Shown here one piece after another: positions 54,175-57,930 of a stretch of DNA of 64,000 nt; position 1 is the first letter of the stretch; each line of letters opens with the position of its first letter. This stretch comes from Escherichia coli O157:H7 (GTDB taxonomy: Bacteria; Pseudomonadota; Gammaproteobacteria; Enterobacterales; Enterobacteriaceae). The notes under the pieces were generated by a model, which was not told where the DNA came from, did not search any database, and worked only from the letters and a program-made list of their open reading frames with translations. The translations under genes were made by a program, and so were the position numbers. The stretch is from NCBI RefSeq assembly GCF_013167455.1, contig NZ_CP038328.1; one strand, written 5' to 3'.

Positions 54175-55080
54175 TTACCAGCGACCGGACGCGCCGCCAC
54201 CGCCAGAAGAACCGCCCCCGCCGCTAAATCCGCCGCCTGAGCCTCCGCCACTTGAGCCGCCACCGGAAGAGGATGAAGAAGAACCTTTTCTTGAAGCTCT
54301 ATCTTTACTGAGTTTTTTGTATTTGGCGCGTAGCTTTTTATTGACGATAAGCCAAAAAATAACCAGTGGTACGATCGCAAAAGGCGTTAACATACCGCAG
54401 GCAACGATTAAATTGGTCCATGGTCCTGGCTCGGCAACATAGAGGAATACCATCCCGTAAATGGCGCCAGTGAGAGTGATCCAGGGTAAATTCGACGGAT
54501 CGGTAAAAACAATAAAATATGAAAGTACCGCCAGCAATATAATTACAGCAAGCGATAATGGAATAGGGGGATTGATACTGTAATAATCCCCCCTGTCTTC
54601 CGGTAATTCACCATTCAACAGAAGCGCGCCGATATTTTCGCTTGCCAGTGTTAATCCACCCATCAGGTCATCACTTTTGAAGGCAGGGATCAATATATCC
54701 CTGATAATCTTCGCCGCTTGCAGGTCGGTAACCACCCCTTCCAGCCCGTAGCCAACCTCAATACGAACAGCATGATCCTCCCAGGCAACCAGAAGTAAAA
54801 TACCATCGTTTCTCTGCTTATCTCCCAGTTTCCAGCTATCAAAAACCCTTGTAGCATATTGTTCAATGGAATCGTCTCCGGTGGACGGCACTACTAATAC
54901 AGCGACCTGCGCCCGTGTTTTATGTGTAATATCCTGCAGTTGCTGTGTCAGTGATTGTTGTTCAGAAGTGCTTAACGTACCAGTAATATCGGTCACCTGT
55001 TGGCGCAGTTCCGGCACAGCAATTTGCTGGGCAAGCCCAGGAAGGCACCACAAAGTGAATAGAATAAAGATTAAGCGCAT
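54175..55080 (-). CDS. ygcG: TPM-domain membrane protein with Gly/Ser-rich C-terminal tail (eno-proximal paralog)
   Basis: About 301 aa from ATG 55078-55080; signal peptide MRLIFILFTLWCLPGLA; TPM-domain-like core; predicted TM helices; C-terminus ..FSGGGGSSGGGGASGRW; symbol assignment tentative. Confidence 0.75.
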   Translation of the reverse strand: MRLIFILFTLWCLPGLAQQIAVPELRQQVTDITGTLSTSEQQSLTQQLQDITHKTRAQVAVLVVPSTGDDSIEQYATRVFDSWKLGDKQRNDGILLLVAWEDHAVRIEVGYGLEGVVTDLQAAKIIRDILIPAFKSDDLMGGLTLASENIGALLLNGELPEDRGDYYSINPPIPLSLAVIILLAVLSYFIVFTDPSNLPWITLTGAIYGMVFLYVAEPGPWTNLIVACGMLTPFAIVPLVIFWLIVNKKLRAKYKKLSKDRASRKGSSSSSSGGGSSGGGSGGGFSGGGGSSGGGGASGRW

Positions 55081-55085
55081 TACGA

Positions 55086-56234
55086 TCACCAACGGACGGA
55101 TGAACCGCCGCCTCCTGAAGAACCGCCACCACCGCGGAAAGAATTTCTCGACGAAGAGCGAGAATGAGCATTACGATTCCCCGTTTTCCTGTTGCTTTTT
55201 TCTCCTGACCCCAGCTTAAGATTGCCAGTAAATTTGGCCACAATGATCAGCAGAACGATGCCAGCAATGGTTATTGGGCCGATAAAATGATCAATTAACC
55301 CAATAATTGTTGAGATGAATGCAATATCTTTATTACTGGCGAACACCAGGCACCATCCCACAATAATTATCAGCATCACGACAAACAATGAATTTCGTCC
55401 TGATTCACGAACCTGCGGAGTCTTCTTTTGTTTTTTCACTTTAGCGTTTTTATTTTTTGGGGTCAGCATCATAGGAAATACGCGGCACATATTAAAAACT
55501 ACCGCGAGACGCTGCTTGCAGGTTGTTGCTAACAATAAACTAAAACAAACGACCGATACCCGCCGAATGATGACATCGTCCTGAAAGGAGAAAAACCAGA
55601 CCATAGGGGTAATCATCGATATCATCCATATGCCACGCCGTGGGCGGCTGGCAAATAGCCAGAGGACAACGATGGCAACGATCATCAGCAGTGTCCAGGC
55701 AAGACATGGCAGCGAACGTTGCGGATTAGCAAACAGATGATTGGCTAAAGCATCCAAAGGGCTAAGGTTCGCTTTGATATGGGTAAACTGTGCGATGCTT
55801 TCAATTCCGCCCGTTAATCCAGCAAAGAGATTGTTTTTTTCGAATTCTGGCTGCATATGGTAACGAACAATTTGCGCAGCTTGTTCCGGCGGCAACATCT
55901 CTTCCAGTCCATGTCCAATCTTCATTGACGCCAGCCCTTCCGGCCATACGACGAGAATTAAGATACCTTCGCCATATCGCTTCTCTCCAACGGGTTTCCA
56001 GTGATATACCCCGTATCTCTGCGAGGCTGCAAGTTTAATGTTTTTGCCCCCTGTGGTCGGCGTAACCAACACGGCCACCTGGAAGTGGTTTTGCTGCTCG
56101 AGAGTCTGTAATTGTTGAGTTAAAGCAGTTTGTTCTTCTGTCGTTAATGTCCCGGTTAAGTCAGTCACTGAAGGCAATCGTTCAGCGAATACCTGAAAAC
56201 CGCATAGCATCAGAAGTAAGAGAAAAATACGCAT
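55086..56234 (-). CDS. TPM-domain membrane protein, second paralog (longer multi-TM C-terminal half)
   Basis: 382-aa ORF; signal peptide MRIFLLLLMLCGFQVFA; TPM-like core; C-terminus ..RGGGGSSGGGGSSVRW; AAGGA before ATG. Confidence 0.75.
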   Translation of the reverse strand: MRIFLLLLMLCGFQVFAERLPSVTDLTGTLTTEEQTALTQQLQTLEQQNHFQVAVLVTPTTGGKNIKLAASQRYGVYHWKPVGEKRYGEGILILVVWPEGLASMKIGHGLEEMLPPEQAAQIVRYHMQPEFEKNNLFAGLTGGIESIAQFTHIKANLSPLDALANHLFANPQRSLPCLAWTLLMIVAIVVLWLFASRPRRGIWMISMITPMVWFFSFQDDVIIRRVSVVCFSLLLATTCKQRLAVVFNMCRVFPMMLTPKNKNAKVKKQKKTPQVRESGRNSLFVVMLIIIVGWCLVFASNKDIAFISTIIGLIDHFIGPITIAGIVLLIIVAKFTGNLKLGSGEKSNRKTGNRNAHSRSSSRNSFRGGGGSSGGGGSSVRW

Positions 56235-56248
56235 ATCAATTCCTTTTG

Positions 56249-57142
56249 TTACCAGCGCCCGGAAGCGCCACCGCCACCAGATGAACCGCCACCACCGCTA
56301 AAATTGTCATTGTCGAATGAAGAGGATGACGATGATGAATAGTGGGAGGAAGAATTGCTTCTTGTATGGCGTGATGGCTGGTTGGCATCACGCATCAAAT
56401 CCCGAACTTTTTTGCCGAAGGGGGTAAAAGCGATGGCGACAGCCAGGAACGGTGTGGCGAAGCAGAGTCATGTTGCGAGTACTCCCCAGCTTCCGCTGAA
56501 GCCTGCTATAGGTAAAACAAAGGCCAGTACAATAGCTGCGAAGCAAATTACTCCCAGCGTTTTGATATATCCTCTGGCAGAAATAAACGTCAGTACTATC
56601 GCCCAGACTAACAATGCCCACCAACCGCTAAAGGGCAAAGGGTGATCGGTCGGTGTTATCGTTGCTAAATTATTCCCCGTCAGACGACTTTCAATATCGC
56701 TGATTCCCTTTTGCAAACCACCAGCCAGGTCGCCTTTTTTAAATGCAGGAATAATACTGTTGCGAATAATTTTCCCGGACTGCGCATCCGTAATAATACC
56801 TTCCAGTCCGTAACCGATTTCAATACGCACGGTATGATCCTGCCAGGCGACTAACAGTAGAACGCCATCATCGCGGTCTTTATCACCCGGTTTCCAGCTA
56901 TCGAATACCCGCGTCGCGTACTGCTCGATGGTTTCATCGCCTGTTGTTTCAACCACTAACACGACCAACTGTGCGTAGTTTTTTTGCGTCAGGGCTTTAA
57001 TCTGGTTGGTCAGGGTGTTTACTTCGCTGTTTGTTAATGTGCCGGTTAAGTCATTCACATACTTGGGTGATTCAGGTACTGGAATTTGTGTGGCAAACAC
57101 AGATGAACAGAAGAAAGCCATAAGGAAGATAAAATTTCGCAT
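56249..57142 (-). pseudogene. TPM-domain membrane protein, third paralog, interrupted by in-frame TGA at 56468-56470
   Basis: ORF 57142..56471 (MRNFIFLMAFF.. signal peptide) continues in the same frame after the TGA for 72 codons to ..FSGGGGSSGGGGASGRW stop at 56249-56251; TGA lies inside a predicted TM segment. Confidence 0.7.
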
Positions 57143-57155
57143 AGAACTTCCCCGC

Positions 57156-57792
57156 TTAATGAGCATTAGCATTCTGGCTAAAATCTATTGTTGGGGCTTT
57201 ACTTACTGCGGCGACATCATCCGGCAAATAATTTTTCTTTGGTGTGTAATCCATGACCTTTGCGGTTAATACAGCGGGGAATTTGCGGATAGTGACATTA
57301 TATTGTTCAATGGCTTTAATATATCTTCCTCGCGCAACGGCAATCCGATTTTCACTTCCTTCAAGCTGTACCATTAAATTTTGATAGAGTTCCTGAGATT
57401 TTAACTCAGGGTAACGCTCACTAATTATCGTTAACTGACCGAGAGTGCGAGTCACCTGCGCTTGAGCCTGTTGCCAGGCTTGTAATTTTTGTTCATCTCC
57501 CGGAGTTTGCTGAAGATCGCTACTGGCGCGATTAGCCTGGCTACGAGCCAATGTTACGGCTTCCAGTACATCTCGTTCATGGCTGGAATAACCTTTAATG
57601 CTGGCGACAAGATTAGGAATAAGATCGGCGCGACGTTGATATTGATTCAATACCTCAGACCAGGAGGCGTTAACCTGCTCATCATAGGTTTGAATATCGT
57701 TATATCCACAGCCTGATAAATTGAAAATAAATATAATTACGATGAATATTCTGAGCGTGTTTAAATCCCTTTTAATTAATTCCTTAAAACAT
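57156..57792 (-). pseudogene. LemA-family protein, apparent +1 frameshift in a T4 run directly after the ATG
   Basis: Body reads ..NLSGCGYNDIQTYDEQVNASWSEVLNQYQRRADLIPNLV.. (LemA-like) but has no in-frame ATG/GTG before TTG 57648; ATG at 57790-57792 is +1 out of frame; removing one T of TTTT (57786-57789) gives MFKELIKRDLNTLRIFIVIIFIFNLSGCGYN.. Confidence 0.6.
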
Positions 57793-57930
57793 AATACTCT
57801 GCTTCATTTTATTCTTTATGATCTAATCCACTTTTTGCCATAAACCTGCCTGTAACAGAATGTTAATAAGACATGATTGTTGTGGCAGGATCTGCAATAA
57901 TTAACAATTATCCACTTCACAGAGAATGCT

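Follow-up and report, generated by a model that had tools for sequence, protein, structure and literature searches.

The interval between eno and queE on the Escherichia coli O157:H7 chromosome carries a cluster of genes for a LemA-family protein and TPM-domain membrane proteins, which we analysed within a 64,000-nt stretch of that genome (hereafter the window). In the window, eno occupies positions 52817-54115 and queE positions 57931-58602, both on the plus strand, and between them lie four co-directional reading frames on the minus strand, which we call lemA, TPM1, TPM2 and TPM3 in their 5' to 3' order. A preliminary description of this DNA had read the cluster as a LemA gene followed by three tandem TPM paralogs; four such frames are indeed present, but lemA and TPM1 are damaged, which that description missed. 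The cluster in the window consists of two intact genes and two damaged ones, only TPM2 and TPM3 being clearly intact. Taken together with the comparative data given below, the locus is very probably an Escherichia-specific, expanded lemA-TPM operon at a conserved queE-eno site that has been partly eroded in O157:H7. Its genes and lesions are as follows:

57156-57776, minus strand: lemA, LemA family, a predicted periplasmic lipoprotein of 206 codons, beginning at an ATT start according to RefSeq (WP_042909427.1)
57756-57758, minus strand: ACG at the position of the ancestral lemA ATG start, located by alignment to intact alleles
56468-57142, minus strand: truncated TPM1, 224 codons, with signal peptide, TPM domain and two hydrophobic segments (RefSeq WP_001243487.1)
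56468-56470, minus strand: in-frame TGA in TPM1, where orthologs have TTA (Leu), located by read-through translation and ortholog comparison
56249-56467, minus strand: cut-off 3' part of TPM1, 73 codons, delimited by read-through translation and hydropathy
55086-56234, minus strand: TPM2, 382 residues, in which a signal peptide leads into a diverged TPM domain, followed by about five membrane segments (with a basic loop) and a tail rich in Gly (Pfam, hydropathy)
54175-55089, minus strand: TPM3, 301-304 residues (ATG at 55080 or GTG at 55089), with signal peptide, TPM domain, three membrane segments and a basic Gly-rich tail (Pfam, hydropathy)

The family assignments of the preliminary description hold. 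lemA matches the Pfam LemA profile (PF04011) with an E-value of 6.2e-48 over model positions 1-149 of 149, and the Pfam TPM profile (PF04536, TPM_phosphatase) is matched by an intact TPM1 ortholog at 2.4e-41, by TPM2 at 3e-21 and by TPM3 at 3.9e-38. Relatives of solved structure agree: a phmmer search paired an intact lemA ortholog with the LemA helical bundle of PDB entry 2ETD (2etd_A) at 2.9e-32, and TPM1, the only TPM protein in this comparison, matched 7TBR (2.1e-22), 5ANP (3e-20) and 2KW7 (8.7e-20). The profile E-values and the orthologs in other genera place these features far beyond chance.

Spacers of 5 to 14 bp had also been reported, and the sequence gives 13 nt from the lemA stop to the TPM1 ATG, 14 nt from the end of the TPM1 frame to the TPM2 ATG and 5 nt from the TPM2 stop to the TPM3 ATG, the last becoming a 4-nt overlap with the GTG start used by the Prokaryotic Genome Annotation Pipeline (PGAP). 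A scan of the cluster found no convincing internal terminator between the four genes. One strong terminator-like structure lies 3' of TPM3, tail-to-tail with eno and common to both:

54131-54158, minus strand: terminator-like hairpin GCCAGCC-CGAA-GGCTGGC with a T-run, seven pairs, six of them G-C

The tight spacing and the single strong terminator after the last gene suggest that the four genes form one operon. The GC content of the cluster, at 44-50%, is near that of its flanks. Two E. coli chromosomes match the 3.8-kb region at 100% identity, and all four coding sequences already have RefSeq annotations in a genome of 100% identity. The operon is thus an ordinary, previously annotated accessory locus, partly broken in the O157:H7 genome.

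As an intact gene, lemA fails in the window because its canonical start has been lost and only an ATT remains. Intact alleles begin MLRIF...LSGC, and their start codon is ATG in strains ES6, YP3, EP91A and O145 and ACG in the window and in O55:H7. RefSeq begins the identical lemA at the ATT at 57776; in E. coli, ATT initiates translation very weakly. The cluster end at 57803 given in the preliminary description is merely the first base past an upstream in-frame TGA and not the start of lemA, and the frame from 57803 to 57650 contains no ATG, GTG or TTG. The LemA N-terminus is hydrophobic and ends in the lipobox LSGC, part of an L-[STA]-G-C-G-Y-N motif that is invariant across the 15 proteobacterial LemA homologs inspected, and the protein is predicted to be lipidated and to possess an N-terminal membrane anchor. 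Under the Lol sorting rule, Gly at position +2 of a mature lipoprotein directs it to the outer membrane; LemA has Gly at this position and would be expected to go there.

In TPM1, the TGA separates the 5' part from codons for the third membrane helix, a basic Ser-rich linker and the GGGGSSGGGGASGRW tail, all of which are still in frame with the 5' part, and the gene carries the full YgcG-type architecture with its C-terminal motif only when the TGA is read through. Intact TPM1 orthologs of 297-302 residues are found in E. coli YP3, O55:H7 and O145 and in E. albertii and E. marmotae, and the gene is also intact in EP91A. RefSeq annotates the truncated O157:H7 TPM1 as an ordinary coding sequence with no pseudogene flag. 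It marks TPM1 as 'incomplete, missing C-terminus' in ES6 (locus L003, 4001-4936), though the frame there is full-length, and places the same flag on the full-length TPM1 of EP91A (L004, 2640-3543) and O145 RM8995 (L098, 2801-3704).

Exact matches to short sequences around each lesion allow the two to be ordered. The 61-mer centred on the TPM1 TGA is found in 299 complete genomes, those listed being O157:H7 or unlabelled, and 493 further genomes differ from it by 1-2 bases. The 61-mer centred on the lemA ACG is found in 311 complete genomes, and those listed include EDL933, Xuzhou21 and an O55:H7 strain. Because O55:H7 strain USDA5905 carries the lemA ACG yet has an intact TPM1, with TTA in place of TGA, loss of the lemA start appears to be the earlier event: ATG evidently became ACG in the ancestor of O55:H7 and O157:H7, and TPM1 acquired its TGA later, in O157:H7.

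The predicted TPM proteins share a common plan, in which a signal peptide that looks cleavable (...VFA/TQ, ...VFA/ER and ...GLA/QQ) precedes a TPM domain of about 125 residues, hydropathy indicates three hydrophobic segments after this domain (about five in TPM2), and a tail with 7-9 Lys/Arg runs into a Gly-rich end. TPM3 possesses the complete set of YgcG-type features, namely signal peptide, TPM domain, helices and the C-terminal motif GGGG-x-[FS]-GGGG-A-S-G-x-W. TPM2 is without the IEQYA and R-IE-GYGLE stretches common to TPM1, TPM3 and YgcG, it carries 11 Lys/Arg in the loop between its membrane segments, and in a search of 5.8 billion proteins its full-length homologs were confined to Escherichia. 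The O157 TPM2 tail (55086-55100) ends SSVRW (GGGGSSGGGGSSVRW), with Val where Gly is invariant in 53 of 53 other tails; that of E. albertii (L014, 8660-8685) ends ASDR, without the terminal Trp, and YP3 TPM2 keeps SSGRW. The TPM2 tail thus appears to be degenerating. At the DNA level, the tails are encoded by three copies of a 55-nt direct repeat (repeat family D1):

54174-54228, minus strand: tail-coding repeat, copy 1 (TPM3)
55085-55139, minus strand: tail-coding repeat, copy 2 (TPM2), 73% identical to copy 1
56248-56302, minus strand: tail-coding repeat, copy 3 (TPM1), 85% identical to copy 1

The suggestion that this is a strain-variable locus is borne out by allele counts. Scoring a form as present where at least 80% of the four-gene or of the K-12 segment was found, we counted, among 5426 complete E. 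coli genomes, 1102 with the four-gene form and 3924 with that of K-12, leaving several hundred genomes with other forms by subtraction. The four-gene form is therefore not universal in E. coli, and all matches to the cluster are chromosomal, with none on a plasmid. K-12-type genomes carry yqcG (46 codons) and ygcG (290 codons) at the eno-queE site; a single ygcG had been correctly given for K-12, and the small yqcG is there as well. K-12 YgcG is 38-42% identical to each of TPM1-3 (42% to TPM3), and its membrane segment (PFWFFHQGSNFCRACKSGV...) resembles those of the Brenneria and Tenebrionibacter TPM partners, not those of TPM1-3. By these comparisons, ygcG is a deeply divergent TPM allele standing alone. 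The possibility that K-12 ygcG arose by recombination that collapsed TPM1-3 into one gene was considered and rejected on account of the 38-42% identity and the different membrane type.

The origin of yqcG can be approached through the DNA upstream of lemA, where two further features lie:

57808-57930, minus strand: queE-lemA divergent intergenic region, presumed to hold the operon promoter and 5' leader (inferred)
57784-57807, minus strand: putative seven-codon upstream open reading frame (uORF) MKQSIMF*, recognised in the sequence and its conceptual translation and conserved in four-gene alleles

The K-12 yqcG gene (L002, 3962-4102) is collinear with this uORF and the first lemA codons (window positions 57650-57810), and the second ATG of the uORF (57792-57790) aligns with the yqcG start codon. 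The local DNA alignment of yqcG and lemA scores 43, compared with 10.8 +/- 1.7 in 2000 shuffles of which 0 reach 43, and BLASTP aligns YqcG VKTFTKIIFIFSVLVFNDNEYKITDAAVN with LemA LRTFIVIIFIFNLSGCGYNDIQTYDEQVN at 4e-4 in a single comparison. YqcG keeps the hydrophobic core of the signal peptide, and the lipobox Cys is lost. On these data, yqcG is what is left of the 5' end of lemA and the small upstream reading frame after decay in place; a literature search found no paper linking yqcG to LemA.

Other alleles bear on the proposal that the locus was shaped by recombination between paralogs. In strain MS20657, the eno-proximal TPM gene (L007, 576-1448) encodes a protein whose residues 1-80 are identical to TPM3 and whose remainder is YgcG-like, at 77% overall identity to K-12 YgcG, with the join at the conserved IEQYATRVFD segment. 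In E. marmotae, the same chromosomal site (L015, 6617-8412) holds lemA, an intact TPM1 and TPM3 and no TPM2; here the TPM1/TPM3 junction falls inside the 55-nt tail-coding repeat, and the TPM1 stop passes directly into a TPM2/TPM3-type junction (TGGTGATC..ATGCGC), a state that would fit loss (or gain) of DNA through the repeats that encode the tails. The proposal stands for this chimera and this repeat junction, but not for the K-12 form, in which YgcG is no collapse product and lemA decayed in place. The ES6 allele represents a third class and consists of lemA, a divergent TPM1 and an unrelated 120-codon reading frame (L003, 3603-3965) that replaces TPM2 and TPM3. This frame contains two hydrophobic stretches. 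We also note that a public gene call list omits the intact E. marmotae TPM1.

Looking beyond E. coli, we found that the eno-queE site of lemA-TPM genes is conserved across genera. E. albertii carries all four genes there, which suggests that the four-gene state (lemA, TPM1, TPM2, TPM3) is old in Escherichia, and Klebsiella carries lemA and a single TPM gene whose membrane part is like that of TPM3. By this membrane-region similarity and the MS20657 chimera, TPM3 corresponds in position to K-12 ygcG and to the lone TPM gene of Klebsiella. A wider census was made by scanning a genome collection with a LemA alignment, which yielded 80 loci, one per species, mostly from Beta- and Gammaproteobacteria with Bradyrhizobium, a Leptospira and a Nitrospiraceae metagenome-assembled genome in addition. 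Sequence 3' of lemA extends for at least 2.2 kb at 65 of these loci, and 58 of the 65 have a long TPM gene directly 3' of lemA (same strand, within 400 nt), often with a 4-nt overlap with lemA, which confirms the statement of the preliminary description that LemA-TPM pairings recur. A second, tail-less TPM gene of about 165 residues is present at 35 of these 65 loci and the long gene only at 23, and three long TPM copies occur in the census in E. albertii only. The motif GGGG-x-[FS]-GGGG-A-S-G-x-W forms the C-terminus of 53 of 61 long TPM proteins, with most positions invariant from Leptospira to Escherichia (loci L017-L096), and we found no function assigned to it. What is new at the locus, on the evidence of these genomes, would be an Escherichia-specific triplication of long TPM genes within a known class of lemA-TPM operon. 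The pair had also been called functionally uncharacterised, and our literature search indeed found no functional study of LemA with TPM; nor did the literature mention the O157 locus tags Z4091-4093 and ECs3636-3638, which were guessed and are possibly wrong.

Comparison of E. coli with E. albertii shows purifying selection on each of the four genes, with ratios of non-synonymous to synonymous substitution rates (dN/dS) of 0.04 for lemA, 0.13-0.15 for TPM1, 0.22-0.25 for TPM2 and 0.13 for TPM3. Within E. coli, TPM2 reaches values of up to 0.6, although all within-species ratios rest on very few substitutions (dS 0.01-0.04). These values bear most directly on the strongest of the competing explanations, which holds that the locus in E. 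coli, and above all in O157:H7, is a functionless, decaying relic whose remaining frames drift and have not yet been broken. The two independent lesions in the O157:H7 lineage speak for it, as do the reduction of lemA to yqcG in 3924 of 5426 genomes, the further reduced forms (the ES6 type and E. marmotae without TPM2), and, in TPM2, the elevated within-species dN/dS and the Val that replaces an otherwise invariant Gly. Against decay as a general account stand the interspecies ratios of 0.04-0.25 for all four genes, the intact TPM1 of YP3, O55:H7, O145 and EP91A and the lemA ATG of YP3, O145, EP91A and ES6, and the unbroken TPM2 and TPM3 frames of about 300 O157:H7 genomes; the few substitutions behind the within-species ratios detract further from that argument. 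The notion of a decaying relic suits O157:H7 well but not the constraint seen at the level of the genus, and as an explanation of the locus we consider it unlikely, if one to be taken seriously.

Several observations suggest a link between the locus and stress. The 94 nt adjoining queE are 100% identical between K-12-type and four-gene alleles. YqcG is reportedly induced by stress and bears the RefSeq product name 'cell envelope stress response protein'. In K-12, the queE-side spacer contains a site recovered with RpoS holoenzyme by systematic evolution of ligands by exponential enrichment (SELEX; PMC5493296) and a sigma-S chromatin immunoprecipitation (ChIP) peak (PMC4447067), and PhoP-P binds to it (PMC4974570). 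When yqcG is deleted from an mgrB-deletion strain, expression of queE goes up (PMC4974570). A Flavobacterium sppA mutant shows increased expression of lemA and of a TPM gene (PMC13236525).

Combining these observations, we propose that LemA and the TPM proteins may form a stress-induced scaffold at the periplasmic face of the inner membrane, a model drawn from sequence features and analogy that we regard as possible but not probable. LemA would be exported and lipid-anchored via its invariant lipobox, with its helical bundle in the periplasm. The TPM proteins would be exported by their Sec signal peptides, placing the TPM alpha/beta domain in the periplasm, with three helices (five in TPM2) anchoring them in the inner membrane; by the positive-inside rule, their basic Gly-rich tails, ending in GGGG-x-[FS]-GGGG-A-S-G-x-W, would be cytoplasmic. 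The tight or overlapping gene junctions would point to co-translated partners. In stationary phase or when the envelope is stressed, such a scaffold could stabilise the membrane or aid the assembly or repair of membrane-protein complexes. Because it is chiefly in the membrane parts that the paralogs diverge, their clients may differ. Roles of this kind have been described for relatives of both proteins: TPM relatives are auxiliary or assembly factors of membrane complexes (PMC11237479, PMC8267372, PMC12419801), with Psb32/TLP18.3 acting with photosystem II, CcoZ with the cbb3 oxidase and YdjH with PspA, and the LemA relative MamQ takes part in magnetosome membrane formation (PMC4902198). A bolder version, in which lemA-TPM is an undescribed and widely conserved proteobacterial trans-membrane system whose LemA and TPM proteins sense or repair envelope damage and whose TPM C-terminus signals to a cytoplasmic partner, seems doubtful to us. 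Taken as a whole, with identity, evolution and mechanism combined, our best explanation is tentative and falls somewhat short of an even chance.

A number of observations weigh against this explanation. About 72% of complete E. coli genomes are without the lemA gene and O157:H7 tolerates two lesions, which makes the system dispensable. A scan for consensus sigma-70 promoters found no site in the queE-lemA spacer; the evidence for stress regulation was obtained for the K-12 allele and leaves the strand of the sigma-S promoter ambiguous. The literature searched contained no experimental data on a lemA-TPM operon in any organism. LemA-like domains of other phyla have been modelled on the membrane's cytoplasmic side, and the periplasmic placement of LemA may hold only for the lipobox-bearing proteobacterial clade. 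Finally, we modelled a fusion of LemA to the TPM1 periplasmic domain with AlphaFold2, using a 25-residue Gly/Ser linker and 34 diverse rows from 67 species-paired LemA/TPM-domain pairs (a run without predicted aligned error output). Both halves fold: the LemA half is all-helical (H2-67, H72-97 and H103-141) with block values of the predicted local distance difference test (pLDDT) of 63-88, and the TPM half alternates strands and helices with block pLDDT of 82-96. The predicted TM-score (pTM) of the fusion is 0.46 and the relative placement of the halves is not confident; lacking confident docking, the model leaves direct contact between LemA and TPM unsupported, though not contradicted.

A different function for the same proteins follows from their family name. 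If the TPM domains were periplasmic phosphatases or nucleotidases, the cluster would be a small catabolic or scavenging operon with LemA as an accessory anchor. Pfam calls the family TPM_phosphatase, the closest solved relatives include BA41 (5ANP, 3e-20) and BA42, for which papers reporting ATPase/ADPase and phosphatase activity are cited, and a plant homolog has been termed a phosphatase, as cited in PMC11237479. Two comparative analyses, by contrast, favour an assembly factor and regard phosphatase activity as unlikely (PMC11237479, PMC12419801), and the authors of one comparative study argue for a chaperone-like role. TPM2 is under purifying selection even without the IEQYA and R-IE-GYGLE stretches, and a soluble enzyme would need neither a multi-helix membrane part nor an invariant cytoplasmic tail. 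We therefore hold the hydrolase reading to be quite improbable, and continue to prefer an eroded lemA-TPM scaffold operon. A mobile or anti-phage defence island is barely credible: presence/absence polymorphism and CRISPR (clustered regularly interspaced short palindromic repeats) sequences 1-2 kb away would favour it, but PADLOC 2.0 gave no match for LemA or TPM1-3 and a single chance-level match for K-12 YgcG (0.0075), integrase, transposase and repeat boundaries are all absent, Klebsiella, E. albertii and E. marmotae have these genes at the same site, and the cluster is everywhere chromosomal with GC content like that of its flanks. Similarly far-fetched is the idea that the TPM1 TGA and the lemA start are programmed (read-through or selenocysteine in the one, non-canonical initiation in the other) to give four full proteins, for although RefSeq takes the ATT start, flags neither gene as a pseudogene, and the TPM1 3' part stays in frame, orthologs have TTA (Leu) and ATG at these positions, which identifies TGA and ACG as recent single-base changes of one lineage, and no Rfam family, selenocysteine insertion sequence (SECIS) types included, reached the gathering threshold in 52000-60000.

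Some features of the neighbourhood deserve mention in their own right. A direct pattern search located two pairs of type I-E CRISPR repeats, at 58944-59029 and 59532-59617, with 0-3 mismatches to GTTTATCCCCGCTGGCGCGGGGAAC; they lie between queE and ygcE in a stretch of 29-37% GC and constitute two minimal arrays with 61 nt from repeat start to repeat start. Tandem Repeats Finder reported no array near queE, and an Rfam search at gathering thresholds likewise missed these repeats. Beyond queE in ES6 (L003, 6706-9564) there is a long CRISPR array together with an IS3 element. In O55:H7 USDA5905 (L097, 7632-8061), RefSeq marks yqcE, beside ygcE, as a pseudogene with an internal stop.

Of the bacterial envelope proteins that lack a known function, LemA and TPM/YgcG belong to the more widespread ones and are co-encoded in most of the Proteobacteria sampled, and the presence of several natural states of the module at one E. 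coli site makes simple comparative genetics possible. Should the trans-membrane system proposed above prove real, E. coli would present a natural allelic series that runs from the intact operon (B2, O145) through loss of the lemA start (O55:H7) and the additional TPM1 nonsense mutation (O157:H7) to a lemA relic with one TPM gene (K-12), and YqcG, a small protein induced by stress, would have been exapted from what remained of a lipoprotein signal peptide. Derivation from lemA would in any case explain the origin of this K-12 small protein. The locus also exposes annotation problems, with a truncated gene recorded as normal and intact copies recorded as partial.

Among known systems, the closest is the canonical operon of lemA, long TPM and short TPM found in Pseudomonas, Bradyrhizobium, Nitrosomonas and Xanthomonas (L012, L018, L063, L045 and L032). 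There, as at the locus in the window, a lipobox-bearing lemA comes first and a tail-bearing TPM gene of 280-350 residues follows within a few nucleotides, often overlapping, and the long TPM gene of the window likewise lies directly 3' of lemA (13-nt spacer); the tail-less third gene of about 165 residues is missing from the window, however, and three long TPM genes are found here, in Escherichia only. The K-12 yqcG-ygcG allele shares the eno and queE flanks and the identical 94-nt upstream spacer, and its ygcG has the same signal peptide, TPM domain, membrane part and identical GGGGSSGGGGASGRW end, but it has one TPM gene instead of three, and its lemA is reduced to yqcG without the lipobox Cys. 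More distant is ydjFGHI of Bacillus subtilis, which encodes PspA, YdjG, the TPM protein YdjH and a flotillin-like protein (PMC11237479); the partner there is PspA, of the ESCRT-III family, and not LemA, and no homology between LemA and PspA is claimed. Psb32/TLP18.3, which acts in photosystem II repair, and CcoZ/MSMEG_4692, which acts with a respiratory oxidase, are auxiliary factors that combine an extracytoplasmic TPM domain with a membrane anchor, but they have a single anchor helix, no LemA partner and no conserved Gly/Trp C-terminus. MamQ belongs to the same LemA fold family, although it has a transmembrane anchor instead of a lipobox and is not paired with a TPM gene. The NCBIfam profiles keep both relatives at a distance: LemA scores 89.8 bits against the MamQ equivalog (NF040966), under the cut-off of 250, the Psb32 equivalog (NF047379) gives 31-40 bits, under its cut-off of 160, and in the same scan TPM2, YqcG and the 120-residue ES6 protein had no match, the other proteins showing these sub-threshold MamQ and Psb32 similarities.

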